DNA from: Escherichia coli
Lineage (GTDB): Bacteria > Pseudomonadota > Gammaproteobacteria > Enterobacterales > Enterobacteriaceae
NCBI RefSeq assembly: GCF_011045215.1
Contig: NZ_CP049202.1
Length of the DNA stretch: 64,000 bases
Reading direction: 5' to 3' (one strand)
The translations under genes and the position numbers were made by a program. A model generated the notes under the pieces. It was not told the DNA's origin. It was given only the letters and a program-made list of their open reading frames with translations, and made no database searches. Positions 6,896 through 63,050 of this stretch are shown in pieces; positions within the stretch are counted from its first letter, which is position 1, and each line of letters begins with the position of its first letter.

Positions 6896-9048
6896 CAGAA
6901 ATCATCTCCCGGCTCAACATCCTCCCCGCGCTCCCGGTGCACATTAATGTTCACCTCTTCACGACGCTGCATCTGCTGCTGGATGTCCGGATGATTTTCC
7001 TGTTGCCATGCCTCATAAGCGGCCATATCCACTACTTCACCGGATTCACTGATCCCGGGTGGCAGTTGCTGTTCCATCTCTTCTTCCGGTTTCATTTTCA
7101 GCTCCTGCTCGATCCCCCCTGCCGGAACATTCACACCTGCATCTGACTTCTTATCATTGATGACAGAAGACACTGGCTGTTGTGGCTGTTCAGCCTGAAC
7201 CACGTCTTCTCCGGAAACAACCTCCGGGACATCCGGTTCGAAGAGGCTGGCCATCTGGCGACCTTCTGCTTCTCTTGCGGCAAGCACGGCACTCAGGCGA
7301 TTCTCCATTTCCGGATTGATTTCACGCGGAATAAACTCCGGAGCAACCTTCGGACGTTCCTGATATTTCAGTGAGAGTTTTACTGCCGGATACGGTCCGG
7401 GCAGGGTGACATAACAGGTCAGATCCGGCAGAGACTGAATGTCGGAATAACTGACCAGCGTCTGGCGCTCCATATCCTTACCGGTCGATACCCCGTCACG
7501 CACGGGATCAGCACCGTAGGAATACTGCTCGCTGGCTTTCAGGTGCTCTTTCTCACCAATTTCACCGGCAGCGAACTCTGCAATCTTATGGCTGGGAGAA
7601 CGGAAAAAGGCACGGGTGTTCATGACGTCAAACAGCGTGGCAGCCGCTTTCTCACCGTAGATATCTTCCAGCTGGGCATAGGACTGGATACCAAATACAT
7701 AGCAGCCACCAAACTTACGGGCTTCCGGCAGGATCTCCACCAGGTCCGGCAGTTTGTGTAACGTGGGTAACTCATCACAGAAAAACCACACACGACGGCT
7801 ACGGTTTTCTCCCATTGCCAGCAGACCACGAATGGCAATGGACAGCCACATGGAGATCACCGGCTTCAGGGAGGCATGGGTGTCGGCGTTCGACGAGATA
7901 AACAGCCAGCCGTTTTTCTGATCTTCCCGGACACCACGCATCCAGTCACGGATGGTGAAGGGCTCACCGTTATGCTCAATCCCCTGCAGGTAACGGATGG
8001 CTTTCACGTAGTTGGTCAGCACAGCACGGATGGAAATCGCCGTTTTCTCGATTTTCTCTTCCACCAGGTTGGCCGCCGGTGAATTACGCAGGAAGGTACG
8101 CAGTTTTTCGATTTTGATGGAAAGCAGTGTGTCCACCAGTTTGCTGTAACTGCGGTTGGGGTCATTACGCATCAGGTACGCCGCTTCCGCAAAAATGGTA
8201 CGTCCTGAACCCTGCCAGAACGGGTCCTCTTTTGTGCCCATCGGGATCAGCGTGTTCGCGGTATTATCAAAATCCGGCTGTGTCAGGCACTCCTTCCACA
8301 AATCCCAGGCGGCACAGCGGGCATCCAGCGGATTCAGGATTTTATCGATGGAGGGATCATAGTAACTTTTAACAAATTCCCCTGAACGGTCATAAATCAC
8401 CACCATATCTCCACGCTGACGGGCGTAGTTGGCCAGACGACGGATAACTTCCGACTTACCGGCCCCGACCGTGCCGTGCAGACAGAAGTTCTGGATTTCG
8501 GAATCCCGGATAATCGGCAGGTCGCCAATCCGTATATCGGAGTCCTTGCCGTCTTTTTTCAGCATCCGGGCAACGTCTTTCGGGTTCTCCGTCAGCTGAC
8601 GACCACCTGTGACTTCATTTTCGCTCTGTTGTTTACCCTGACGCCCCAGAATCCAGGAGACAACAAAGAAGGTAATCAGGCAAATAACCAGTGCCACAAC
8701 TGTGGCCAGAACGAATGCGGACCATAGCTGCTCTCCGCACCAGATCATATATTTATCATGCAGTACCTGAGCAGCATTCATCCGGAAGGTTTTGCCGTAA
8801 TACTGGATCTCATATACCGGCTGGGACCTGATTAAATCCCGCATGCCTTCCAGCGTGGTACACCACCAGTAAATACAGCCGTTCACAAACGTCTGCCAGC
8901 TTATTTTTACCCATAAAACCAGACCAACGAGTATCCAGAAAAAAATAAACAGGCAGTAAAGCATGATATTGGCGATCTGGCTGAACATGCGGATACGCAT
9001 GGACGCAATCTGACCGCCCTGGGTCATATCCTTTGCGTTAAAACTCAT
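6895..9048 (-). CDS. traD: TraD type IV coupling protein (717 aa)
   Basis: 717 aa; N-terminal TM segments, Walker A (GTVGAGKS), acidic C-terminal tail ending ...EPGDDF as in F TraD. Confidence 0.95.
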
Positions 9049-9098
9049 GATGAAACTCCGGGAAAATCTGGAACAGAGCAGAAAAGGATGATGTGGGA

Positions 9099-9836
9099 TT
9101 AATTCACAGAAACAGACCAGGTGTACCCTGTATGCCGGTGGTGATAACCGCCTGCAGTCCTGCCGGAAGAGACCTTCTTTGTAACAATGTCAGTCAGGCG
9201 CAATACTTCAGACCAGTCACTCCCATGCGGAAACTGGATCTGAATAAAAAGGCGTACCCGTTCACGATGATCCAGAACTGTGTCCGGTTCATAAAGCAGA
9301 CCACTATCAGGAGAAACACGGGACGTTTTATTGATGAGTTCGTATTTATCGGCATGAGACAGTGATGAAAGCGCCCAGGTAATATTTTCGCCCTGATGAC
9401 CATCAATACGACTGTTCCCCGGCGTCCAGGCAATTTCCTGCGCATTCGCCACGATGATCTGTCTCGATACTTCTGCCAGCTTTTTTGAAGTACAGAATAC
9501 CGGTGCCAGCACACACAGGGACAAAAAATTGCAGCTGACCGCTTCCGGTTTAACCGGACTGCTCCCGGATTTTTCAGGAAAAGATATTTTTGTCAGTATT
9601 TCAGTTAATTCCTTATGCCTGAGAGAGTTAATAAAGTGCATGACAAGCATCATGAGAAACAATATAACAATAAGCCCTCCGATAACCACTAAAAGGTCAG
9701 TATCAATATTATTGTTGTACAGATAGTCTTTAGTGGTCGCTGTATTATCCTGTATCACCGGGGGGTATTCAGTTACAGGCTTCTCAGTAAATTGATTATT
9801 CTCACCAACATATTCAGCGATATTGTCTGATGTCAT
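9099..9836 (-). CDS. Hypothetical single-pass membrane protein (245 aa from ATG with GGAG RBS); not part of the canonical F tra set
   Basis: ORF between traT and traD; start chosen at MTSDNIAEY (GGAG ~8 nt upstream); one strong TM helix ([22 protein letters not shown]); no recognisable domain. Confidence 0.55.
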
Positions 9837-10038
9837 AATGACTTTCTCCGGAAGCTTCCGGCTTCGCCGGCAACACTTCACGGTCGCACAAAGAATTTGC
9901 ACAACCGCTCAGTGTTTTCATATTTATTTCGGAAACGCCGGGGAGAAATAAAATTTATTTTATTTCTTTCCGGGGTTGGACAACGAGCAAAGCGAGGCGT
10001 CAGTCAGGAGGCCGGTCAGACCAGCCTCCTGAAGATAA

Positions 10039-10770
10039 TCAGAGAATATTTGCGATTGATTTGGCCAGCTGGTCTTCGAGAACAGGCTTCGCCTCTTCAA
10101 ATTTCAGGTTAACCTTGTTCGCACTGGAGACCACACGGGTCTGGTATTTATGCTGGTTACCTGTTTCAGTACTGGTCTGAATTTTCGCACCTGATGTGCC
10201 CTGACGCAGGGCGGCAACATTATCCGTTGTCACCGTTGCCTTAGTACGCTCTGCAATCTGCACATCCGTGATCATGGTATAGTTCACATCTTCCACCATC
10301 GCATCTGCAGCCATACCCACCAGACCGGCAGCAAGGCCCACACCGAGTGTGGCACCGGCAGAACTGGAATTATATCCGGTGATACCGGCACCTAACGCTG
10401 CACCAACTGCTGCGCCTTCATAACCACGGTTCAGCCATCCCTGAGACTCCCGCAGATCCATCTTATCGGCCTTCAGCACATTCGCCTGAATCCAGTAGTA
10501 GGCTTTATCCGGAGAAGTCACCACCTGATATCCTTTTGCTTTCACAGCATCAGCAATTTTGCCCTGCAGCCCACTCATGTCTTTATCAGACGTGTTTTTG
10601 ATCTGCAGAAATACCGTGCGTTCGCTGGCGGGTTCAAGCCAGATGGTCTCACTCATCTGAGTCTTCACCTCAAGGTTACGCTTCTTGATTGCTGTGCTCA
10701 TCGCACCACACCCTGAAAGGGCCAGAGTGGAACTGACCAGTGCAACCATCATTAGTTTTTTTGTTTTCAT
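10039..10770 (-). CDS. traT: TraT surface-exclusion outer-membrane lipoprotein (243 aa)
   Basis: Lipoprotein signal with lipobox LSGC; sequence matches remembered TraT; ATG start. Confidence 0.93.
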
Positions 10771-10783
10771 CCAAAATATCCTT

Positions 10784-11293
10784 TTAACTAACAGATTCTT
10801 TTTTGAACAGACCTATTACTGAGACTATTGCAGAGAGATTATAACGATTTATATCTATAGTATAAATAAAGGAAAAAATTACAAACAGAGTTATCGATAA
10901 AAAACCAAATAAGAACGTATGGGCGAAGGAAACTATTGAAAAAACAATCACAAACAACAAGATATAAGTTTTGTTCTTATCATACATAAAAGATATAACT
11001 TTCGACTCATCTCTGAATTTTTTAGGGATAGCAAGATACAACATCATTCCATTAGTAATGGCAACAAAAAGGATAAACCCCATTACGCCACTAAAACATA
11101 TATCAAATCCGGCATCTCGGATATCAACTTTATCTGCCAGCAAACGGAGAAATGTCGGCCATAATAAAATCCATAAAAATACATACCCCCCTGGCTTTAT
11201 GACTTGTAATAATGGCGGAATATTAACACCCTCTACAGAGAGTACATCCTTTAGTTTCTGTGTCTCCGTTTTTATATCATAGTGAGTAATCAT
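10784..11293 (-). CDS. traS: TraS-like entry-exclusion inner-membrane protein (169 aa)
   Basis: Very hydrophobic, AT-rich ORF between traG and traT, the position of the allele-variable traS; start ATG overlaps traG stop. Confidence 0.55.
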
Positions 11294-14136
11294 AATGGTC
11301 CCTTCAGTTGATTCTTTTTCTCATCAATCATTTTTTTCACAGTCTCTTCTGATGGCTCAGGTATTATCTTTTGACTTTCTCGCTCTTCATTATATTTATT
11401 ATTCTGAGATAATGCTTCTGTTTTATGGTGATTTTGTAGTTCAGAATACTGTTTTCTTACAATATTTTCCTCGCCTCGGATGCTGTTCTGAGTATCTCCG
11501 ATATTACCTCGATATTCTGTGACCATATTATCAACCTGATGTTTTACATCATCACGGATATTACTGTCCTGCGTTCTTTGATCAATAATGGCCTGATGCC
11601 CCTGATGGTCAGCAATAATATCCTGGCTGCCACCACCCGAAGGTACGCTCTCCATTCCTTTACCAATATCGCCACGGGATTCACGCCAGGCATTATCAAC
11701 ACCAGGCTGTATCTGTTCCTGCACAAAAGACCAGGCCATCGCCCGACGGCGTTCTGCAATCTCCGGCGAACTGGTATTTGTCAGAATAGCTTCGGCATCC
11801 TGCGGTGCGTGTTTCATCACATACTGTGCAAACTGTTGCGACAAATCTTCACTCATCTGCCCACTCATGCTTTCAGTACGGGATGCCATTTCAGCATATT
11901 CATGGCTGCGGGTCATATTCGTCGTGTACTGGTCGTAACTCTGTTTCGCTGAGTTCAGGGCTGCAGACAGCTGGTCCACACGGGAATCGGCATTATTGTC
12001 AGTATGGCTGCCGGACTCACTGACTTTGCGACTGGTAAAGTAATCGCTGGCCTCTTTAAAGTCCTTACTGGCTTTAGCATCGATATCATGTCGAGCATCA
12101 TGGGTAGCCCTGCTGCCACTACTTGCAGAATGTGAATCATCATCCGTTCGATCAAGACTTCCCTTAAATCCGCCTCTGACACCAACTCCACCACCAACCC
12201 CAAGAATTTTAGGTTTAATCCCCCATTCAGCATGAGCATCTGCATATCCGCCATACGAGAACTTAGAACCTGTTGATGCCAGTTCCTGAGTCGCCTGCTC
12301 ATTACTGATATTATGCGCTTTCGCATAGCTTTCCACTGCACTGCGCATACGGCTGGCCATCATGGAGTCCTGTGCGCTCATCGTGCTGTCAGCGCCACCG
12401 GTGACAGAATCACTGCTCCCCCGGTTAGAACCAAACTGACTGAGCGTATTCCAGGCACTGGCAATACTGCTGCTGAACCCATGCAGGGCGCTTTCTGCTC
12501 TGTTCGATGCCTCCCGGGCCATTTCCTGTTGTGCCGCCGCAATCTGACGCGTTGCATTGATACCGACCGGTAAACGGGACATCGCTCCGCTTGCATCCAT
12601 AACCATATTACCGTCACGGGTCTGTGTGGCGGTTGCGCCACTGCCGGTCTGGTACATCATCTGACCAAACGACGTGGTGCTGTTGGTGCTCCAGCTGAAG
12701 CCGTTCACGTTTTCCGTCTGCATGTTGCCGTAGGAGTAATTACCGTCAACCACACTGCCTGCTGCACTGGCCGTCGGACTGATAGATGAAGAGGCGAAGT
12801 GGCTGTACACACTGGAAAAACCTGCGCCAAGGCCTTTTACCATCATCCATGACAACGGGGGTATCATGACAGATATATATCCGGCAGTGGACGCCAGGTC
12901 GGAGTATTTCAGCTGTATCTGAGAGAGTTCAGAGAGCACGACCGGTGCACCATTCTGCTTTGCATAGAATGTCATGGCACTGTTCAGAATGGCATACAGC
13001 AACGGCCAGGTCTGGAACCACATCAGGGCAAACACATAGCCCTTCAGTACAGACAGCGTTAACCTGTTGAAGACCGCCGCCAGTACCAGGAGCGGGAAGA
13101 TACCAATGGTAATGCCCACCAGAATGGTCTGCACCATCGGCAGGTTTCGCATCAGCACATGACCAATGGAGACATGTGCCAGACGCTGTTTCTCCATCGA
13201 CGAGGTCGTGGCCAGACTGACCAGGCTGGCGGTATCACCGTTACGGGCTGCATTACTGGTGATACCCTCTTTCAGGGCATTCATGGTGACGTTCTGGCGC
13301 ATAATATGGCTGGCAGACTGGCTGGAGCCGTAGAAATAACTGTAACTGTCACTCACCAGTTGCCTGAATAACAGGTCCGGGTCCGGTCTGCCGCCAAATA
13401 TCTGCTGGACATAATAATGCCAGGTCTTGCCTCCGGTATTCGTATCAAAATTCAGCTTATCCTTCAGTCCGACGGATGCGTCCTTACAGGACACAAACGG
13501 CTCTGAACTGTGCAGAAAACTGTAATTATTATTCGGCACCTGACGTAAAGGGCTGGGCTGAGAAAAGATTATGGTGTACGGGTCAGAGGAGGCCATCAGG
13601 TCTTCCAGCGTGTATTTGTGATTCAGGTAAATATCACCCAGCACGCAGTTCTGGACGTAGTCCTGAAACAGATTGATGATTTCCGGATTCCGGGACAGAA
13701 AATCGGTGCTTTTCACAATCAGGTTCGCCCCGAACAGCATGCCTGTCTTGCTGTAGGTGGCGCTGTCAGGCTGAGCGAACACCATCTCATAGCCGGCCAC
13801 CATTGCATGCCCGATACGGGTCGTCAGTGAAAGTGGCATCGCCAGTCCGACCGGCACATTATCCACCCGATGGACTTTGACCAGGTCACTGTTATCAATA
13901 ATCTGCACCGACGTGCGGACATTAACCAGCAGGCTGATAAGCACAAACACGGCCACCCAGCCCAGCAAATCCATCACGTTGTGCCGCTGTACCCATATCA
14001 CGGCCACCGCGAGAACAGACAATGTGAGCGCAATTTTTTCAATGGAATCCCACGTCCTGGTTCCCATAAAGGCGGCAATGGCGTTCAGGTTATTCCGCAA
14101 CCATTCACCACCGGCAATCACATAAACTTCATTCAC
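11290..14136 (-). CDS. traG: TraG mating-pair stabilisation / entry-exclusion partner (948 aa)
   Basis: N-terminus MNEVYVIAGGEWL..., N-terminal membrane domain, large periplasmic C-terminal part; track start codon reads as GTG overlapping traH stop. Confidence 0.9.
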   Translation of the reverse strand: MNEVYVIAGGEWLRNNLNAIAAFMGTRTWDSIEKIALTLSVLAVAVIWVQRHNVMDLLGWVAVFVLISLLVNVRTSVQIIDNSDLVKVHRVDNVPVGLAMPLSLTTRIGHAMVAGYEMVFAQPDSATYSKTGMLFGANLIVKSTDFLSRNPEIINLFQDYVQNCVLGDIYLNHKYTLEDLMASSDPYTIIFSQPSPLRQVPNNNYSFLHSSEPFVSCKDASVGLKDKLNFDTNTGGKTWHYYVQQIFGGRPDPDLLFRQLVSDSYSYFYGSSQSASHIMRQNVTMNALKEGITSNAARNGDTASLVSLATTSSMEKQRLAHVSIGHVLMRNLPMVQTILVGITIGIFPLLVLAAVFNRLTLSVLKGYVFALMWFQTWPLLYAILNSAMTFYAKQNGAPVVLSELSQIQLKYSDLASTAGYISVMIPPLSWMMVKGLGAGFSSVYSHFASSSISPTASAAGSVVDGNYSYGNMQTENVNGFSWSTNSTTSFGQMMYQTGSGATATQTRDGNMVMDASGAMSRLPVGINATRQIAAAQQEMAREASNRAESALHGFSSSIASAWNTLSQFGSNRGSSDSVTGGADSTMSAQDSMMASRMRSAVESYAKAHNISNEQATQELASTGSKFSYGGYADAHAEWGIKPKILGVGGGVGVRGGFKGSLDRTDDDSHSASSGSRATHDARHDIDAKASKDFKEASDYFTSRKVSESGSHTDNNADSRVDQLSAALNSAKQSYDQYTTNMTRSHEYAEMASRTESMSGQMSEDLSQQFAQYVMKHAPQDAEAILTNTSSPEIAERRRAMAWSFVQEQIQPGVDNAWRESRGDIGKGMESVPSGGGSQDIIADHQGHQAIIDQRTQDSNIRDDVKHQVDNMVTEYRGNIGDTQNSIRGEENIVRKQYSELQNHHKTEALSQNNKYNEERESQKIIPEPSEETVKKMIDEKKNQLKGPL

Positions 14137-53581: not shown

Positions 53582-54010
53582 TCAGAATAATTTTTTCATT
53601 TTAAGACGCACATCATTCATTGCCTCCTGCACCGAATCAGTAGCAGAAGGAGGCATTTTTTCAACAGATTGCGAAGCACCGAGTTCAGTCAACACAGCTC
53701 TGATATCGGCCTGAGAAGGCTTCCATCCAGTCGTCTGACTGAGTAAGGTTACAACCTGATCTGCTGAAAACTCCTCGCTCAAAATGGCTGTCAGCAATAC
53801 AGGCAGGCGAGGATCAAGTTGGTGTAACGCCATTCCAGAAATAAATGCATTCCGGAACAGCTCACCACGCTCAGAACGCGGAACGGACTCTATCGCTTCC
53901 AAAGTTTGAAAGTCTGCAGCTTTTTCCGGATGCAGATAAAGTGTGTATTTTTTCCTTTTCCGTTCATCGTCCACAATATTACTCCTCTTTGAAAGCCGCG
54001 ATAGCTTCAA
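53582..54010 (-). CDS. parR: ParR/StbB-like centromere-binding protein (start codon reads as TTG in the track; true start uncertain)
   Basis: Small protein downstream of the parM-like gene with similarity to R1 ParR (...LDSIPRSERGELFRNAFISGMALHQ...). Confidence 0.65.
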   Translation of the reverse strand: MKLSRLSKRSNIVDDERKRKKYTLYLHPEKAADFQTLEAIESVPRSERGELFRNAFISGMALHQLDPRLPVLLTAILSEEFSADQVVTLLSQTTGWKPSQADIRAVLTELGASQSVEKMPPSATDSVQEAMNDVRLKMKKLF

Positions 54011-54950
54011 CCAGTGCTGTCTGTGGCGACTCCATCATCACTACTTTTTGCCCAAGATGGTGCCATGCCGTTTTTATCGAATCATAGATCAACGGGGCCC
54101 CACCACCGACAACATAAACACGATTCACATGATGGAAATCACCGAGCTCATTGACTACTTGCTCCCCCAAACTGGCAATAGCCCCCTCAATGGTATTAAG
54201 GACCAGATCAGTTTTTGTTTCGTCATTTATAACCTGCCGAACAAAGTCCGGGTCATTACGACGTTTAATCAATTCATCTGCAACGAGGAAACTGGTATCA
54301 CTGGATGCCATGCGCAATGCACTCATTGCAGCTTTCGTAACTGAAGACACACCAATGCCAGAATTACCATGAATGGCACTTACAGAGTCAAATTGACCAA
54401 CGATAACACCAACATCAAGCGTAGTGCCGCCAATATCAACTACCAGCGATTTTTCGAACTGACCAACTTTATCCACGACCAGACGAGAAAACACAGCTGG
54501 CAATGATTCAGGCATCACATCAACGTGTTCAATGGTGAAAACATCGCCTTTATTAAGACGAATCGGCCTCATTAAATTCTCAATTTTACGCTGAATGTTG
54601 AGTTCATTTTTTTGACACTCTTTCGTATAGAACTCACTGATAGGCAAAGTCACAGTCAATGATACAGGCTGAGGCGCTAATCCACTATTCAGTAAAGCGT
54701 GATGCACAGCTAACAGGTTAACATCCGTATATTGATACTCAATATGAGTCGTAAGAATAGATTGGTTGCTAACTTCATCATACGTGTATTTTTTACCATC
54801 CAGTTCATAGTTAAATGTCTGGCGAATTCCTAACCCGTCAACCTTCCATCCATGACGAAATGAGTTTTGCGACAACGACTTACAGATTTTTCCATTATCA
54901 TTCCATGCCAACTTGATTGTTGTTGAACCATCATCGCAGTATACGTTCAT
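53979..54950 (-). CDS. parM: ParM/StbA actin-like segregation ATPase (323 aa)
   Basis: Actin-fold phosphate motifs (DDGSTTIKL ... VDIGGTTLD ... VVGGGA) and R1 ParM-like sequence. Confidence 0.85.
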   Translation of the reverse strand: MNVYCDDGSTTIKLAWNDNGKICKSLSQNSFRHGWKVDGLGIRQTFNYELDGKKYTYDEVSNQSILTTHIEYQYTDVNLLAVHHALLNSGLAPQPVSLTVTLPISEFYTKECQKNELNIQRKIENLMRPIRLNKGDVFTIEHVDVMPESLPAVFSRLVVDKVGQFEKSLVVDIGGTTLDVGVIVGQFDSVSAIHGNSGIGVSSVTKAAMSALRMASSDTSFLVADELIKRRNDPDFVRQVINDETKTDLVLNTIEGAIASLGEQVVNELGDFHHVNRVYVVGGGAPLIYDSIKTAWHHLGQKVVMMESPQTALVEAIAAFKEE

Positions 54951-55178
54951 CTATAGCCCCTTAAATACTCAATCTGAGTAAATCATTGTTTCTAGTTGCA
55001 AGGTAATACTCAATTTGAGCACTATCATAGTTATGAAATCACAAAACACAAGTATTATTTATTACATCACATAACGCACTTCATATTTCACACTTCATAA
55101 ATATGAACACATATTGACACCTCAGGTTACCGTGTCAAAATATCATCATACTTCACATATCACATTTATGAGGTTGCA
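54951..55178. promoter_or_regulatory. parC-like centromere/promoter region with short iterated repeats between divergent partition operons
   Basis: AT-rich; repeated ATACTCAAT(C/T)TGAG and TTCACA(C/T)TTCATA-like motifs. Confidence 0.45.
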
Positions 55179-55823
55179 ATGATTACTGTAGTTGGTGGGA
55201 ACAAAGGTGGTTCAGGGAAAACTACCATTGCATCAAACCTGGCTATTGCTCTCGCAAATAAAGGAAGGGAAGTCTGCCTGTTAAACGGAGATCTACAACG
55301 AACAGCCGCAAAACATCATGCGGAACGAGAAGCTGCAGGACTGTTACCAGCAATAACCCTTGTTGAGAAATTTGATAACCTGACACAAACACTACAGGCT
55401 CTGAATGAAAAGTTCGATGATGTAATAGTGGATGTCGCAGGAAGAAACTCAAAGGAATTCATAACGAGTGGAGTTGTCGCACATCAAATAATTGCGCCAC
55501 TACAGTGTTCTCAACCAGATCTGGATACTCTTACAGAACTAGAACAACAGATAGACGCAATGCGTAACCTTAACCCGGAACTTAAGGTTTATTGTTTACA
55601 AAGTATGGCAACAACCAATCCGGTTTTGAGGGGAAATGAGAGAAAAGAATTCCTTGAATATCTTGAAGAATTCCCAACAATTCAAGTCCTTGATTCAGTT
55701 ATTTGTTTCAGAAAAGTCTATCGCGATTGCATGAGCAACGGCACCGGTGTAGTAGAAACGAACAATACAGCAGCCAAAGCAGAAATTGAACATTTAATGA
55801 ATGAGGTATTTGGCCCATGGTGA
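55179..55823 (+). CDS. parA: Small ParA/ParF-type Walker ATPase (214 aa)
   Basis: Deviant Walker A GGNKGGSGKTT at the N-terminus; 214 aa. Confidence 0.85.
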   Translation: MITVVGGNKGGSGKTTIASNLAIALANKGREVCLLNGDLQRTAAKHHAEREAAGLLPAITLVEKFDNLTQTLQALNEKFDDVIVDVAGRNSKEFITSGVVAHQIIAPLQCSQPDLDTLTELEQQIDAMRNLNPELKVYCLQSMATTNPVLRGNERKEFLEYLEEFPTIQVLDSVICFRKVYRDCMSNGTGVVETNNTAAKAEIEHLMNEVFGPW

Positions 55824-56092
55824 AGAAACCCAGCCAGCAAGCATTAAACAGAGCTGCAGTTACGGTAGAACAAGCAGAGGCTCTGGCTCAGCGCCTTGCG
55901 GATAAACCATACGGCGCGCCGGAAAAACCCGAACCAGAAAAACAATGTCGGACGACAATCTCTCTTGGTGAAAGCATGCTTGTCACAATAGAAGATCTGG
56001 CATTGAGGAATAAACGCAATGGTAAAGATCCAAAAAATGTAAGTGCCATCGTCAGAGTAGCCCTTGAGCAATACTTAAAAACACTAACGTAA
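55817..56092 (+). CDS. Small ParG/ParB-like RHH centromere-binding partner (91 aa)
   Basis: Small protein overlapping the parA stop; C-terminal RHH-like segment. Confidence 0.55.
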   Translation: MVKKPSQQALNRAAVTVEQAEALAQRLADKPYGAPEKPEPEKQCRTTISLGESMLVTIEDLALRNKRNGKDPKNVSAIVRVALEQYLKTLT

Positions 56093-56229: not shown

Positions 56230-57039
56230 TTATGCGTGTCTGTTTTTCAGCATTGTGACCGCATCGGACTCAGGCATCGAAAACTGCACCCGGTGCCGTG
56301 CAGCCACATCCAGCGCAAACACCTTCGTGTAGACCTCCGTTGAGCTGATGGACTTATGCCCCATCAGGCTCTGCAGGACCTTCAGTGGTATACCGGCATA
56401 CAGCATGTGCATCGCATGGGAATGGCGGAACGTATGTGGCGTGACCGGGACAGAGAACGTCACACCGTCAGTAGCAGCGGCGGCAACCGCCTCCCCAATC
56501 CAGGTCCTGACCGTTCTGTCCGTCACTTCCCAGATCCGCACTTTCTCTGTCCTGCCTGTTCGTTTATTACGCCGTTCCAGAGGAATTTTCAGTGTTGCCA
56601 CCATCGTCTGCAGCTGACTGACGTACCAGGAGTCGGAGAGCGGAACCAGCCGGTGAGTCTGCTGTCCGGCAGGCGTTCTTCCTGCCGTCCTGGCGGCTTT
56701 TTCGGTCCGCTGCTTCAGAGTGGCCAGCTGCACAAACGGATACGGAGGCGCAAGCGAAAAATCCCCCCGCGTCAGCGCCAGTGCTTCATTAATGCGCGCA
56801 CCGGTGTTCCACAGTGTGGCCAGCAGCATCTTGCGGCGCAGATCCGGGACGTAATGGAGCAGGGCACTCACTTCCGGAGCCAGCAGATATTTCGGCAGTT
56901 CATCATGAACCATCGACATCTGGCGAAGTGCCAGAGCTGCCGGATAATCAATGACAACAGGAAGTTGTGGAGACTGTCCGGCAGAATACACTGCCGGTAC
57001 CCTGGCTGCAGACTGGCTGTGTATAACGGAGCCTGACAT
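56230..57039 (-). CDS. resD: ResD-type tyrosine site-specific recombinase (269 aa)
   Basis: C-terminal tyrosine-recombinase motifs (HTFRHSHA...LMGHKSISSTEVYT); directly downstream of ccdB as in F. Confidence 0.85.
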   Translation of the reverse strand: MSGSVIHSQSAARVPAVYSAGQSPQLPVVIDYPAALALRQMSMVHDELPKYLLAPEVSALLHYVPDLRRKMLLATLWNTGARINEALALTRGDFSLAPPYPFVQLATLKQRTEKAARTAGRTPAGQQTHRLVPLSDSWYVSQLQTMVATLKIPLERRNKRTGRTEKVRIWEVTDRTVRTWIGEAVAAAATDGVTFSVPVTPHTFRHSHAMHMLYAGIPLKVLQSLMGHKSISSTEVYTKVFALDVAARHRVQFSMPESDAVTMLKNRHA

Positions 57040-57565
<526 letters not shown>

Positions 57566-58118
57566 AGCACACCTCTTTTTGACATACTTCGGGTATGCAT
57601 ATAAGTATATATTATTATGATGCAAAAATCAGCGCGTAAATACACATACTGTTATCTTATTTTTAGTAAACCTTATTTATTTTACCTTGCGTTATGTTAA
57701 CCAATAAAAATCAAAATCTGACTTATAAAAACAAACCGTAATTATCGCATTCCCGTTTCTGTCAGATCCGACTTTCATGAATATCACAACTTTCCGGAAG
57801 TGTACCACGCTGAGAAAATCATCATATCACTGTTTTCCGCCCCTGCGCGGCGCATCACAGGTCAGGGAGATGACACAACATATAGTGTCATTAGCAGCTG
57901 AATTCAGAACTACATGTTGTGCTGATGGGAAGATGGCGCTGTGCGGCGGGAGAGGAAGATCCGTGACCAGGAGTTTTCGGATCTTCCTGAAGAAAAAGAA
58001 AGATTAATGCCTCTATGTCATCAATTAAAATAGATTACTGTCCAAAATGCATTAATGCTTTTTTTTGATTACAATATCTTGGCACTGTTGCATAAAAGAC
58101 AGAAATCACTCACGGCAC

Positions 58119-61100
58119 TCAGACGTGATTAAACATAGCTATGACAGGATCTGTCATCTCTGCATCCAGCTCCCAGAGATGGGTCATAATACTTTTAAGC
58201 GGATCATCTGCATCTTCCCGGCAGAACGTGCAGAACATCGTATCATCAGGATAACGGAACAGACGTAAACGGCCAAAAGATGAATTCCGTACCAGTAATG
58301 AGTAATTATCCTGACAGTCCGGAACGAAATATATTGTACAGTTGCCAATCATATATTGAAGAACATGTGGCTGATATCCCTTTTCTGGTTTACTTACTCT
58401 TTTTATGCCAAGTTCATTATGTTTATCAGTGCAATATTCAAGTTCGTATAATTTCCTGGAAAAACAATCACCATACACAATGAGAGTGCAATCTTCTTCT
58501 TTTTTCATAAAAATTTTTACTTTATGAAAAAGTTCATCCAGATTGCCTATATCCTCACTCAACTGACCGCGATTAATAAAGAGTTTCCGGTGAACTGTAT
58601 TAAGTATGTTGTCTGCAATTGTTGTTGAGGGAAAAAATGTCGGATCAATTGTGCGTCCAAGTTTCTTTGCCACACTTTCCTTATCAATGCCAATATTAAT
58701 CCATTGTTTTTCCCAGCGTTCTGAAATTCCAGTATCAGGTGTAAACTCAAACAGAGAAAGAAGATGATCTTTCTTAATATCATCAACAACATTCTGAGAG
58801 ATGTTCATATCAATTCTTCTGAAAAGATCGATGTCTGCTTCTGCCTTTATAATATCTGACTTAATACTTTCTTCAAAAGCGGATATGTACATGTCCAGCG
58901 TTCTGTTAAAGAATACAACTCGCGTAGCATACTCCTCCGATGTCTTCAGAAAGTTTTCTGCTACTTCTGTTGTGCTTTTTGTCAGAGATTTCAGCGTATA
59001 AACAATATTTTTTTTATCAGAAAATGAAAAAATCCCTTCACCGATTGCAGTAACCACTTTCTGGCTGATACGTTGTTCAGATACAGACAGCATTACCGCT
59101 ATATCAGCAAATGCAGGGTATAGTGTGTTTAAATCATCAACACTACTCATATAAATCCGCCCGGAAATAACCGGGCCTTTGTTGTTTCTGGTGAGCCTCT
59201 CCACCATATGAGACAAACGTGAAAACCAGTTACTGTGCTCGTCTGCATGGCAGAAAGTGAGACGTAATATAACATCAATAATATCAGTCTGACCTACTAT
59301 TGCCGAAGGTAGTGTATTATATGCACCAGTTGGGGCGACCAGTGAAGGAGACAGTAACCGTTTGATGACAGTGAGCAAATTGACATTTTTTTGTTGTCCC
59401 AGATACCTCACCATATAAGCTGACAGGAACAGGCGGAGATCAGTCATCACATTACGCATTGTCAGGGATAATGCGGCTTTTTCGTTATACGATGCCCCCC
59501 TCAATATGCAGGACTGACAGTTGTCTGAAACAGAGTGCAATAAAAAATCTGGCGTAAGAAAAAGGCTGTGCCACAGATATTCTTCGTGATAATGATTATG
59601 AAACTGCCCCTGATTAAGCCACAGCATAAACATATCAGTACTCAGATCAGTGGCATCAATATCATCAGATGTTATTGCCGTAATAAGCATTTCCATAGAG
59701 CGAAACAAATGTGATACAAGGGCCTCAGTATAGCCAGCAGTATCAACATTATTCTTAAACGTCAGACGCAACCACATATGCCAGCTTTCCCACTCGCCGA
59801 TAAAATGTTGCAGCATTGCAACATAACGTTGCTTCTGGTTCACTGATAACGCCTTGTTTCCAACATTCCAGTCAATCAGTATCTGCCAGATATCACACTG
59901 GGACTGAAGAGCCTGTTGCAACTCTCCGGTTCTGTCTTCTCCCCGATACCGGTAAAAAGACTGAGGAAGATGTATGATCTTTCGAAAATACGTAGATGTG
60001 GTATCCAGTGTTTTCACCACTTCTTCTGCAAGACGGTAGAAATCATTATGAAAAGACTGGCTTAAACTTTGTGGAAAAAATGAAATGGATACATCATCAA
60101 TATAATTTTTATCACCATACTGGAAACATCTTTTCAGTGTAATAAAGGTCGAAACAAGTCTGTCTGCAGCTTCCTCAAACGCCCCCAGATTTCGTTCATC
60201 CAGAGCATCATAAATTTCCCCATAAAAACCTCTGGTGAAATTTAAAAAATTTGTTTTTTCCCATTTGCTTCCACGGATAAAACAGAGCTTAAACAGCTTC
60301 TCCCAGATAGCATTATATCTGATACCGGTTGTAGCCAGAATAACCACTTCGCTGTTATGTATCCCCCACCCAGGTAAGACTCTGATTCTTGCAGGTCCCG
60401 TTCCGACAGGTTTTAATCTCCTGAGGAGAAACAATAATGGAAGTGTATAGATATCTCTCACACATTCATCCATTTTAAGTTTTAACTTCAGAAGATCAGA
60501 CTTTTCCTTCTCCGGAGAATCATAAACATCAACAGAGACATTCAGCCGTCCCATTTGGTTAATATATCTCCCAGGAAGAGCCAACCAGTTTTTTACCATT
60601 GCTGTTCTGATATGTTGCGCCACGACTTTTGAAATAAAATACTTAAGCATAATTCGATCACGCCGGCGATCATCCAGAACATTCAGGCTCTGAATAAAAA
60701 ACCAGATAGACAAACCAATATTCATGATCATCCAGATTATTGCCACTACAACAAGGCAAATATCAAGGTATTTATCCCCCCGGGCAGACAAAAGTTCACT
60801 CACCAGAATAAATGCAGCAAGGGAAAGACCGCTCAGACCTGCAAACATGTATCCTGAGTAAAGCTGATAGGCCGACTGGATATGCTCACGTGTCGATTTT
60901 TTCTGAAAAAGGACGCTGATCAGACCGACAACTAATGGAAATACAATACCAATGATGGTTAATTGTCCACCCAGCAGATCTGAGAGTCCATCTGGAAGCT
61001 TTTCAATCCCCTTAAAATACTGCCTGCCAAATGGAGCCAAGACCGGCCTCAGATACAAACCAGCAAGTACAATCATTATTGCACCAACCCAGAGAATCAA

Positions 61101-61250
61101 CATAGCCCGCCCATAGTATGTCGAGCACCAGGCCAGCAGGCGCTCAAAAACATTCCAGCGGTATTTTCGATATTCAGAATTCATACGTAAATTATGTCTG
61201 AGCTCACGATCAACAAGACTGTTCACGCTTTTAAACAGTTTACTCAACAT
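58119..61250 (-). CDS. Hypothetical large protein (1043 aa): four N-terminal TM helices plus a ~850-aa soluble region with Cys-rich C-terminus; function unknown
   Basis: Single long ORF, AT-rich by eye; hydrophobic helices at about residues 50-190; no Walker A or other motif I recognise. Confidence 0.7.
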   Translation of the reverse strand: MLSKLFKSVNSLVDRELRHNLRMNSEYRKYRWNVFERLLAWCSTYYGRAMLILWVGAIMIVLAGLYLRPVLAPFGRQYFKGIEKLPDGLSDLLGGQLTIIGIVFPLVVGLISVLFQKKSTREHIQSAYQLYSGYMFAGLSGLSLAAFILVSELLSARGDKYLDICLVVVAIIWMIMNIGLSIWFFIQSLNVLDDRRRDRIMLKYFISKVVAQHIRTAMVKNWLALPGRYINQMGRLNVSVDVYDSPEKEKSDLLKLKLKMDECVRDIYTLPLLFLLRRLKPVGTGPARIRVLPGWGIHNSEVVILATTGIRYNAIWEKLFKLCFIRGSKWEKTNFLNFTRGFYGEIYDALDERNLGAFEEAADRLVSTFITLKRCFQYGDKNYIDDVSISFFPQSLSQSFHNDFYRLAEEVVKTLDTTSTYFRKIIHLPQSFYRYRGEDRTGELQQALQSQCDIWQILIDWNVGNKALSVNQKQRYVAMLQHFIGEWESWHMWLRLTFKNNVDTAGYTEALVSHLFRSMEMLITAITSDDIDATDLSTDMFMLWLNQGQFHNHYHEEYLWHSLFLTPDFLLHSVSDNCQSCILRGASYNEKAALSLTMRNVMTDLRLFLSAYMVRYLGQQKNVNLLTVIKRLLSPSLVAPTGAYNTLPSAIVGQTDIIDVILRLTFCHADEHSNWFSRLSHMVERLTRNNKGPVISGRIYMSSVDDLNTLYPAFADIAVMLSVSEQRISQKVVTAIGEGIFSFSDKKNIVYTLKSLTKSTTEVAENFLKTSEEYATRVVFFNRTLDMYISAFEESIKSDIIKAEADIDLFRRIDMNISQNVVDDIKKDHLLSLFEFTPDTGISERWEKQWINIGIDKESVAKKLGRTIDPTFFPSTTIADNILNTVHRKLFINRGQLSEDIGNLDELFHKVKIFMKKEEDCTLIVYGDCFSRKLYELEYCTDKHNELGIKRVSKPEKGYQPHVLQYMIGNCTIYFVPDCQDNYSLLVRNSSFGRLRLFRYPDDTMFCTFCREDADDPLKSIMTHLWELDAEMTDPVIAMFNHV

Positions 61251-61929
61251 AAGTAACCTTCATAACCGGATTTATCCTCTGATTTCACTGCCAGAATGAT
61301 ACGTTGATTTACCTATTTTTATAACTGTGAATCAAGCTCAGCTCAGTTCCAGACTCCGACAAGCCAGACAGATATTGATTCCAGACTTTGTTATAAGATA
61401 TTGACTAGCTCACTCTTAAGAACTAATTTTAAAATTTTGTTGATAACATCTTTCAGCCTCTCTGGTTTTCTAGGCCCAAGCCAGCAACGTCAGCCCCCAC
61501 AGCTCCTAAGCTCCTATAGTTGGATTAATATGAGCGAAGCTGTCGAACTAGCGTTACCGGACGAAGAAGTTCTTCTGTTCAGGACCGCAAAGACATGGAA
61601 ACGATGTTAGGCTCTTATTGTGTTAACCACGAAATTAATCCAGCATCGTTGTCCGGCAACCTCTGTTCCAACTTTTCCCTGTCATGCTGGATCAGGTGTC
61701 TTAGCTGAGCCACTGTTACTGGTACTGTCCACCTCCACCGCATAACAGGCCGAAGCCACAACATTCATAGAAAATGTTGTTTTTTATCTCCCTTCTCGCC
61801 GCCTCTGTCAAAGCCAAGGGTCATGTACAGGCAATAAAGAACCTTTAGGGGAATGTCACGAACGGTGCAAAAATGGTTCTTCCGCAACTTGGGGGAAGGA
61901 AAGAAAAAGGATCTAAGCTGTTTTAAGTT

Positions 61930-63050
61930 ATGGGTAACGCAATGCACTCTCTTAAGACACTTCTACAGTTACCTTGCAGATGGCAATGCAGTCGACAAAT
62001 AATTAGCTCTGACGGTATAACCCTCCATCTCCGCGGAAAACGCAAAACAGCACAATGCCCTGAATGCTTTAAGCGTAGCGATTCTGTTCATAGTTGTCGC
62101 CGGCTGGATACAGCATCTACCCTGTGCAGGCCAGACGCTATGGCTTGTATTTTCCGTCCGCCACTAGTACTGCCGTAACCCAGCTTGTTCACGTAAAATT
62201 TTTGCCGAGTCGCTTGCTCCCTTCGCCGGTTCACACCAGCAGTCTTCACTGGCATTACAAAATTTGCAACGTCAACTGGGATTAATAGCCGGAGGTGAGG
62301 CCGGAAAACGAGCAGCAACGGCAGTGGGTCTCCGTTGCAGTGCAGATACTCTTCTTCGCAGGGTTATCAATACCCCGGAGACGAGACTGTCAGGCGCGCT
62401 CCATGTCAGTATTAATGAGTGGAGGTGGCCATCGGGGCCACCGTTACGGTACGTTAATTGTCAATCTTGATACTCACCGTCCCCTCGCCCTGCTTCCCGG
62501 CCGTGAGCAGTGTACACTGGCCACCAGGTTCAGAAAATATCCGGAAATACAGGTTGTCTCGCGTGATCGTAGTGGAGTCTATGCGACAGCAGCATGTGAG
62601 GGTGCACCTCAGGCCAGGCAGGTGGCTGATCGATGGCATCTGCTAAATAATATTGACGATGCGCCTGAACGAATGATGTACAGACATATACCTCTGATAC
62701 TCTTGTTGCCCCAAAGAAATCACCTGAGCCATAACTGCCTGTGCCTGCAGCATCGCTCCGTTGTCCGGAATGCCTTAAACAGCAAACCAGCAAAAAACGG
62801 CATCAGCGTTGGACAAAGGTTATGGCCCTGCATAACAAGGGATGTAGTTTCAGGGAAATATCCCGTATTACAAGCCTGCCGCGTGTGACAGTCAGTCGCT
62901 GGGTGCGTTCAGGAACATTCCCTGAAATGTCAACCATGCCTCCAAAGCGAGGGCTTCTGGCCTCATTTAGAGAGTGGTTAAAAGAGCAACGAGAAAGTGG
63001 TAATTATAACGCCAGCCGGATATGGCGGCCCGGGGTTTACAGGCAGTGAA
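61930..63050 (+). mobile_element. Decayed ISL3-family-like transposase gene (multiple frameshifts), IS remnant
   Basis: Fragments in three frames: N-terminal zinc-finger-like CPECFKRSDSVHSCRRLD, central ...VSINEW... and DRWHLL (cf. ISL3 DRFH motif), then an HTH-like segment. Confidence 0.45.

Follow-up and report, generated by a model that had tools for sequence, protein, structure and literature searches.

A plasmid-borne four-helix membrane protein with a predicted HK97-fold C-terminal domain as a candidate single-gene anti-phage system in Escherichia coli

The analysis of a 64,000-nucleotide stretch of Escherichia coli plasmid DNA (contig NZ_CP049202.1, hereafter the window) reveals a 1043-codon open reading frame (ORF) upstream of ccdAB, whose product is a predicted inner-membrane protein with four transmembrane (TM) helices and, in its last ~280 residues (765-1043), a domain predicted to adopt the HK97 capsid fold. 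The protein represents a large and undescribed family that has no Pfam coverage and stands outside every catalogued family, and its predicted architecture is unprecedented. We give about even weight to the reading that the ORF is a stand-alone, horizontally mobile abortive-infection-type anti-phage system of a new family, a function suggested by the genomic contexts in which its homologues occur.

The ORF with its stop codon occupies window positions 58119..61250 on the minus strand and begins with ATG, and its coordinates and length are exactly those proposed in an earlier reading of this DNA made from the letters and a list of ORFs (the sequence-only reading). A plausible Shine-Dalgarno element (AAGG) lies 8-9 nt 5' of the ORF start, while ~680 nt of non-coding DNA (61251-61930) separate that start from an ISL3 pseudogene; a consensus scan 5' of the start returned no sigma-70-like site, with promoter-like sites in the region below shuffled expectation, and the scan is uninformative. 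The composition of the ORF is clearly atypical for its surroundings, its G+C content (GC) being 0.402 and its third-position GC (GC3) 0.38, compared with a GC of 0.549 in ccdA-ccdB-resD and 0.503 in the whole window and a GC3 of 0.63 in resD, which puts figures on the AT-richness previously noted by eye. The product is identical to WP_012775851.1, a record named "hypothetical protein" that pVir68 shares with dozens of conjugative IncF-type plasmids of E. coli.

Membrane topology was derived from hydropathy, charge and structure prediction. Kyte-Doolittle analysis gave four hydrophobic segments (approximately residues 47-70, 92-115, 133-155, and 163-188) that agree with the AlphaFold helices, and thus the four N-terminal TM helices placed at about residues 50-190 by the sequence-only reading are borne out. 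By the positive-inside rule, the distribution of lysine and arginine assigns three segments to the cytoplasm, namely the N-terminus (residues 1-46, with 9 K+R), the loop joining TM2 to TM3 and the sequence that follows TM4 (RRRDR), and the ~850 residues that follow the membrane module are therefore predicted to be cytoplasmic. A full-length AlphaFold2 model built from a 40-sequence alignment (mean predicted local distance difference test (pLDDT) 83.7, predicted template-modelling score (pTM) 0.67) divides the protein into five parts, listed here with their window coordinates, all on the minus strand:

61113..61250, minus strand: residues 1-46, basic helical N-terminal segment, predicted cytoplasmic (AlphaFold2 helices and the 9 K+R)
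60675..61112, minus strand: residues 47-192, four-TM module whose TM2-TM3 loop contains a short amphipathic helix (hydropathy, AlphaFold2, conservation)
60249..60674, minus strand: residues 193-334, long juxtamembrane helix (194-233) and small beta-rich domain (~240-330) (AlphaFold2)
58959..60248, minus strand: residues 335-764, all-alpha, helical-repeat-like region, predicted cytoplasmic (AlphaFold2)
58122..58958, minus strand: residues 765-1043, mixed alpha/beta domain with a predicted HK97 (capsid/encapsulin-like) fold (structure prediction)

When this model was searched with Foldseek against AFDB50, the matches were members of the same family only, nearly all of them named uncharacterized, with full-length template-modelling scores of 0.7-0.9 among members down to 13-14% identity. 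At such identities these scores indicate that the architecture has been independently predicted many times.

The assignment of the C-terminal domain was examined by modelling residues 765-1043 alone from a new 37-sequence alignment of the region (identities 9-40%), which yielded a confident prediction (pLDDT 90.5, pTM 0.83). The core of the domain model, corresponding to the A- and P-domains, resembles solved HK97-fold proteins in three dimensions; the comparisons are listed with their score and, in brackets, the aligned extent and deviation:

T4 gp24: 11.7 (205 / 3.4 A)
Family 2B encapsulin: 11.1 (193 / 3.7 A)
P. furiosus encapsulin-like particle: 11.1 (192 / 4.1 A)
lambda gpE: 10.9 (214 / 4.4 A)
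HK97 prohead: 10.6 (183 / 3.2 A)
80alpha: 10.3 (205 / 3.6 A)
herpesvirus capsid floor: 10.2 (200 / 3.8 A)
SaPIbov5 Ccm: 9.8 (190 / 4.3 A)
gene transfer agent: 9.1 (186 / 5.8 A)

At the start of the domain, a helix of 32 residues (771-802) occupies the position of the spine helix, and alpha/beta and long-stranded beta-sheet subdomains follow. In the DSSP assignment for the full-length model, residues 756-770 are coil and are preceded by helices, and neither an E-loop beta-hairpin nor an N-arm is evident ahead of the spine-like helix. Sequence comparison was silent on this relationship: identity to HK97-fold proteins is 5-13%, a PHROGs scan of residues 765-1043 returned 0 families at E<=10, a profile of the C-terminal domain (A3) matched no capsid protein among PDB sequences, and the domain profile recovered fragments of its own family only from 5.8 billion proteins. 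Given these identities and the lack of a capsid-family sequence match, the claim is limited to a predicted HK97 fold and does not extend to membership in any capsid sequence family. The HK97 fold is known almost exclusively from virus capsids, gene transfer agents, satellites and encapsulins, and the literature, which is incompletely searchable, gave us no account of such a domain in either a membrane protein or a defence protein. The sequence-only reading had missed this fold.

Conservation is distributed unevenly along the chain. Among 194 full-length homologues, mean identity to the query is highest in the four-TM module (0.42) and declines through the N-terminus (0.32), the helical region (0.27) and the beta domain (0.23) to its lowest value in the HK97-like domain (0.21). 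Column majority in the 40-sequence alignment is 82% over residues 101-150 and 36-58% elsewhere, and the near-invariant positions of the membrane module (Q96, T98, P105, Q116, Y128, S132, G138, S140, W173, N177, which is 100% conserved, and F184) are mostly polar or helix-shaping. The helical region has a conserved set of its own (N382, W461, W487, E488, H514, D539, W544, which is 100% conserved, N600, D604, R663, G697, R698, and Y700). A conserved membrane module joined to a fast-evolving cytoplasmic part is what one would expect when a conserved effector is paired with a diversifying sensor. The sequence-only reading had proposed a membrane anchor fused to a soluble effector; because identity peaks in the four-TM module (0.42), which holds near-invariant polar residues, and is lowest in the soluble C-terminus (0.21), that polarity is probably inverted. 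The cysteine-rich tail to which the same reading drew attention is present in this sequence as a peculiarity of its lineage, yet among 40 homologues C971 is the only invariant cysteine of the tail and the others occur in 2-8%, which rules out a conserved metal-binding (zinc) motif.

The family is both large and uniform in length. Protein searches gave 101 clusters at 90% identity, and a profile search of 1.84 billion representatives yielded, at 50% identity, 749 clusters with E<=1e-3, of which 299 reached E<=1e-30; the clusters are almost all 1030-1150 amino acids long and aligned over their whole length. Hosts include Enterobacterales, Vibrio, Pseudoalteromonas, Acinetobacter, Marinobacter, Burkholderiales, and Arcobacter, and where the source names members, almost all are hypothetical or uncharacterized. 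Distribution is patchy: the locus (the ORF with its flanks) is present in 17/5426 complete E. coli genomes, and by tblastn the family lies on 420/72,556 plasmids and on none of 50,697 phage genomes. A phage origin was considered and set aside, given this negative tblastn search and a C-terminal profile that recovered only fragments of the family itself.

Searches of the standard collections agree with the earlier impression that the product belongs to no assignable family. The full protein had no NCBIfam match and nothing usable in Pfam (just SLAC1 at E 0.08 and DUF1664 at E 0.24), and no Pfam family was matched when 90 members, the 40 of the 40-sequence alignment and 50 distant ones, were scanned one by one. 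PADLOC (PADLOC-DB v2.0.0) returned 0 families at E<=1 for the ORF product and 0 at E<=1e-5 for a distant homologue (locus L022), searches of PDB sequences with the query and with family profiles produced chance matches only, and the sole PHROGs match of the full protein was a weak one in the TM region (phrog_6981, E 0.002, function not described). The absence of a Walker A motif noted by the sequence-only reading was reproduced, since neither Walker A ([AG]xxxxGK[ST]) nor HExxH was found in the 1043-residue sequence. In the literature, we found no paper naming the accessions of the ORF product or its common homologues; a candidate preprint on Avs8 and PD-T2-1 proved unrelated to the family, and papers on DUF2254 were uninformative about it.

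Several members depart from the full-length form. Two full-size proteins, P0170 (981 amino acids) and P0179 (989 amino acids), match the family profile in two or three stretches that leave positions ~200-330 unaligned and keep the TM motif, and three shorter ones (P0196, P0200, and P0238; 734-833 amino acids) share both features, but their matches break off around profile position 790-800 and leave out most of the C-terminal domain. Profile positions ~200-330, the juxtamembrane helix and beta domain, thus appear from these alignments to be optional or divergent in a subset of members, and some distant members have this stretch shortened or unaligned. Moreover, several plasmid copies of the gene or its homologues (H1, H20, H21, H38, H59, and H74-H77) are interrupted by IS2/IS3 insertion sequence (IS) elements or reduced to fragments, which suggests that some hosts can do without the gene or bear a cost from it.

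The neighbourhoods of homologues were examined at ~17 independent loci, a small sample in which neighbouring genes were checked by PADLOC profiles or precomputed Pfam matches. Known or candidate defence genes lie within two genes of the homologue in ~10 of the 17 contexts, a proportion to be read as that of a small sample with no genome-wide background, and about six contexts hold nothing related to defence. By guilt by association, the operational criterion for defence-island genes, homologues in this sample lie preferentially beside known defence genes across diverse genomes. No partner gene is common across clades in these ~17 contexts and the gene is always solitary; the stand-alone cargo gene seen by the sequence-only reading therefore matches what the family shows more widely, in neighbourhoods dominated by anti-phage genes. 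The principal neighbours, restriction-modification being abbreviated R-M and integrative and conjugative element ICE, are the following:

L002, Salmonella ICE: McrB-McrC directly upstream
L003, Pantoea stewartii: OLD/AriAB-like ATPase beside a P4-alpha-like primase
L006, Pantoea allii plasmid: true PifA (E 1.7e-263) and a pifC-sized gene directly downstream
L007, Pectobacterium: PifA-like protein (5e-65)
L008, Providencia island: type I R-M and PDC-S11
L014, Edwardsiella plasmid: Ppl (2.6e-35)
L018, E. coli IncF plasmid: CBASS cyclase and 4TM effector, PDC-S06 and vapBC, followed by the homologue (39% identity), a DUF3800 gene and ccdAB
L020, Klebsiella variicola plasmid: Ppl-like ATPase and PD-T4-5/Abi

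Two distant homologues are embedded in defence operons. At L022, the homologue (8001-11444) starts at the base after the stop codon of DrmMI (2.5e-214) within a DISARM-like array of DrmA/B, SNF2, DrmMI, the homologue and a phospholipase D-type (PLD) gene, and at L030 the homologue (7986-11201) is flanked by the hsdS and hsdR genes of a type I R-M system, with stop and start codons that overlap. Such placements hint at functional coupling to restriction systems, as in the case of PrrC. An unannotated ORF of 548 amino acids (11482-13128) separates the L022 homologue from the PLD gene. A further homologue of 23% identity sits at a prophage end, just after myovirus tail genes, in six IMG/VR contigs. 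In the clade of 27% identity represented by L003 and L007 (Pectobacterium brasiliense), a 200-residue ORF with a Phage_integrase (tyrosine-recombinase) domain (7122-7724 at both loci, the same offset) immediately precedes the homologue, whereas the genes beyond are not the same; it has no PADLOC match and is missing from the other clades examined, and it may form a two-gene mobile unit with the homologue or may be a regulatory invertase.

The position of the ORF in its own plasmid is consistent with a cargo role. The flanks correspond to those described by the sequence-only reading, with ccdA, ccdB and resD downstream on the same strand and with the upstream transposase remnant identified as a frameshifted ISL3 pseudogene:

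57347-57565, minus strand: ccdA, downstream backbone gene, context outside the system
57040-57345, minus strand: ccdB, downstream backbone gene, context outside the system
56230-57039, minus strand: resD-type tyrosine recombinase, downstream backbone gene, context outside the system
57989..58118, minus strand: 3' flank of the ORF, found in this lineage alone, with F backbone similarity beginning at ~57988
61930..63134, plus strand: ISL3-family transposase pseudogene, frameshifted and truncated, upstream boundary of the cargo segment

Alignment with the F plasmid shows near-identity from ccdA to ~57988, past which F carries pifC-pifA and the present plasmid carries the ORF. The region upstream of ccdAB thus behaves, as far as these alignments indicate, as an exchangeable defence slot in F-like plasmids. 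The same slot in another IncF plasmid (L018, NZ_OW967803) holds hsdR together with the genes listed above. Downstream of resD in the window, two differing partition-type modules stand side by side (53979-56092): a ParM/StbA-type actin-like ATPase with its partner (53979-54950, minus strand) and, adjoining it, a MipZ/ParA-type ATPase with a small 91-residue protein (55179-56092, plus strand). The same backbone (integrase, ParA, ParM, and umuDC) recurs beside homologues on Enterobacter (L019) and Edwardsiella (L014) plasmids.

Taken with the conservation gradient, these contexts lead us to a mechanism in which the variable cytoplasmic part would serve as the infection sensor and the conserved four-TM module, probably after oligomerisation, would be the effector that makes the membrane leaky. 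Shaped like a capsomer subunit, the capsid-like domain would engage either the head-assembly proteins of a phage or its nascent capsomers, and it is the obvious candidate for this part because HK97-fold subunits are built to bind one another. In its most specific form, which we put forward as possible and well short of probable, the mechanism describes a capsid protein domesticated as an immune sensor: a membrane-tethered capsomer mimic would recognise or co-assemble with the head proteins of tailed phages and switch on the four-TM module, upon which the membrane would collapse.

The same domain could act on capsids without killing the cell. In a direct, non-abortive interference with capsid assembly, the tethered HK97-fold domain would co-assemble with the phage major capsid protein and sequester or poison capsomers at the membrane, with the TM module serving mainly as an anchor. 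We consider this unlikely, as a mere anchor would not be expected to form the most conserved part of the protein or to hold invariant polar intramembrane residues, a stoichiometric poison would require high expression, and the domain apparently has neither the N-arm nor the E-loop through which capsid subunits contact one another.

A different reading removes phages from the picture altogether and treats the domain as a self-assembly scaffold only, which would arrange the four-TM modules into a channel with a role in ion or stress homeostasis or another accessory membrane function. HK97-fold proteins, in capsids as in encapsulins, characteristically form pentamers and hexamers, and a capsomer-like arrangement of this kind would accommodate the high conservation of the TM module, its weak matches to the SLAC1 anion channel (best 6e-4 among members) and those chromosomal contexts that hold neither defence genes nor genes of mobile genetic elements (MGEs). 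The family nevertheless has a patchy, mobile distribution, an atypical composition in the case of the ORF, homologues embedded in R-M and DISARM operons and at prophage ends, and cytoplasmic domains that evolve fast, all of which are typical of conflict genes and not of housekeeping channels; this scaffold reading is accordingly one to which we assign a low probability.

Competition between MGEs or another aspect of plasmid biology, such as entry exclusion, an anti-plasmid or anti-conjugation activity, or plasmid maintenance, would fit a membrane protein, as exclusion proteins are, that is carried on conjugative IncF-type plasmids beside ccdAB, resD and partition genes and has one homologue within the transfer region of an ICE. 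The family is, however, also found in prophages, chromosomal islands and plain chromosomal sites that have no conjugation genes, it shows no link to a particular replicon or transfer system, and a capsid-fold domain has no obvious part in conjugation, so that we regard such a role as improbable. That the product is an ordinary transporter or envelope enzyme is very improbable indeed: the names major facilitator superfamily (MFS) transporter, chromate transporter, O-antigen polymerase, and DUF2254 are attached by their sources to a few homologues (DUF2254 to just two AFDB entries), yet the 90 members scanned match none of the corresponding Pfam models (MFS, chromate-transporter, Wzy, or DUF2254, the last, PF10011, being unmatched by the query as well), and the protein has four TM helices, not 10 or more, followed by ~850 cytoplasmic residues.

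The abortive-infection reading, if correct, would add a new single-gene family to the bacterial immune repertoire and would offer a tractable test of capsid mimicry as a means to sense or sabotage phage head assembly. Should the capsid-sensor form of it be true, the mechanism would be new to bacterial defence and would give the HK97 fold a third cellular role, in addition to capsids and encapsulins; it would be widespread in Proteobacteria and would occupy the pif slot of F-like plasmids. Clinical and livestock E. coli, Klebsiella, and Enterobacter carry the gene on conjugative IncF plasmids, so that it may affect phage susceptibility and phage therapy. Even with a function outside defence, a predicted HK97 fold at the end of a 1040-residue integral membrane protein common in Enterobacterales and other Proteobacteria is of interest, since a capsomer-like scaffold beneath the membrane would bring a new structural principle to membrane proteins.

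Comparison with known HK97-fold proteins places the ORF product apart from each of them. Relative to the major capsid proteins of tailed phages (Duplodnaviria), its domain has 5-13% identity and no PHROG, Pfam or PDB sequence match, the N-arm and E-loop are not evident, and the domain is fused behind ~760 residues that include the four TM helices; the family is missing from the phage genomes searched and nothing suggests that it forms shells. Encapsulins are soluble shell proteins of ~260-400 amino acids encoded beside their cargo enzymes (PMC8346489). The ORF product differs in being membrane-embedded and ~1040 amino acids long, with no conserved neighbour and no Linocin_M18/encapsulin match in Pfam. 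Among phage satellites, SaPIbov5 Ccm and the capsid proteins of capsid-forming phage-inducible chromosomal islands (cf-PICI) are capsid-redirecting HK97-fold proteins that are soluble, form capsids and are encoded in packaging modules, in contrast to a lone membrane protein located in defence islands.

Among defence proteins, PrrC offers a parallel in genome organisation, in that its gene sits within a type I R-M operon in the prr locus and the L030 homologue, between hsdS and hsdR with overlapping stop and start, has the same arrangement. The ORF product has neither an anticodon-nuclease nor an ABC-ATPase domain, though, and the copy in the window is unlinked to any R-M system. With the S-4TM effectors of CBASS and the RexB-type abortive infection (Abi) proteins it shares a conserved four-helix TM module that is presumably the executing part, and one homologue (L018) shares its island with a true CBASS 4TM effector. 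It differs from them in matching no PADLOC effector model and in combining a sensor and a putative effector in one chain of 1043 residues, with no cyclase or partner gene.

The closest parallel in position is PifA, a membrane-associated protein that mediates abortive infection with membrane leakage and is triggered by the gene 10 (capsid) and gene 1.2 products of T7. The pifC-pifA genes of F and the ORF occupy the same position at the junction upstream of ccdAB, both PifA and the ORF product are encoded by large stand-alone plasmid cargo genes, and true PifA genes directly adjoin some homologues of the ORF. The proteins themselves are distinct: the possibility raised by the sequence-only reading that the product might prove to be a PifA homologue did not hold, as BLASTP against F PifA gave E=0.97, neither the PADLOC PifA model, which does work, as its 1.7e-263 on the neighbouring gene in L006 demonstrates, nor the Pfam KAP_NTPase profile was matched, Walker A is lacking and the domain architecture differs. 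The earlier picture of a cargo gene outside the described families stands, with the polarity of membrane part and effector probably inverted. Overall, our best guess from these comparisons is that the ORF product works like PifA or the RexB-type membrane abortive-infection proteins.

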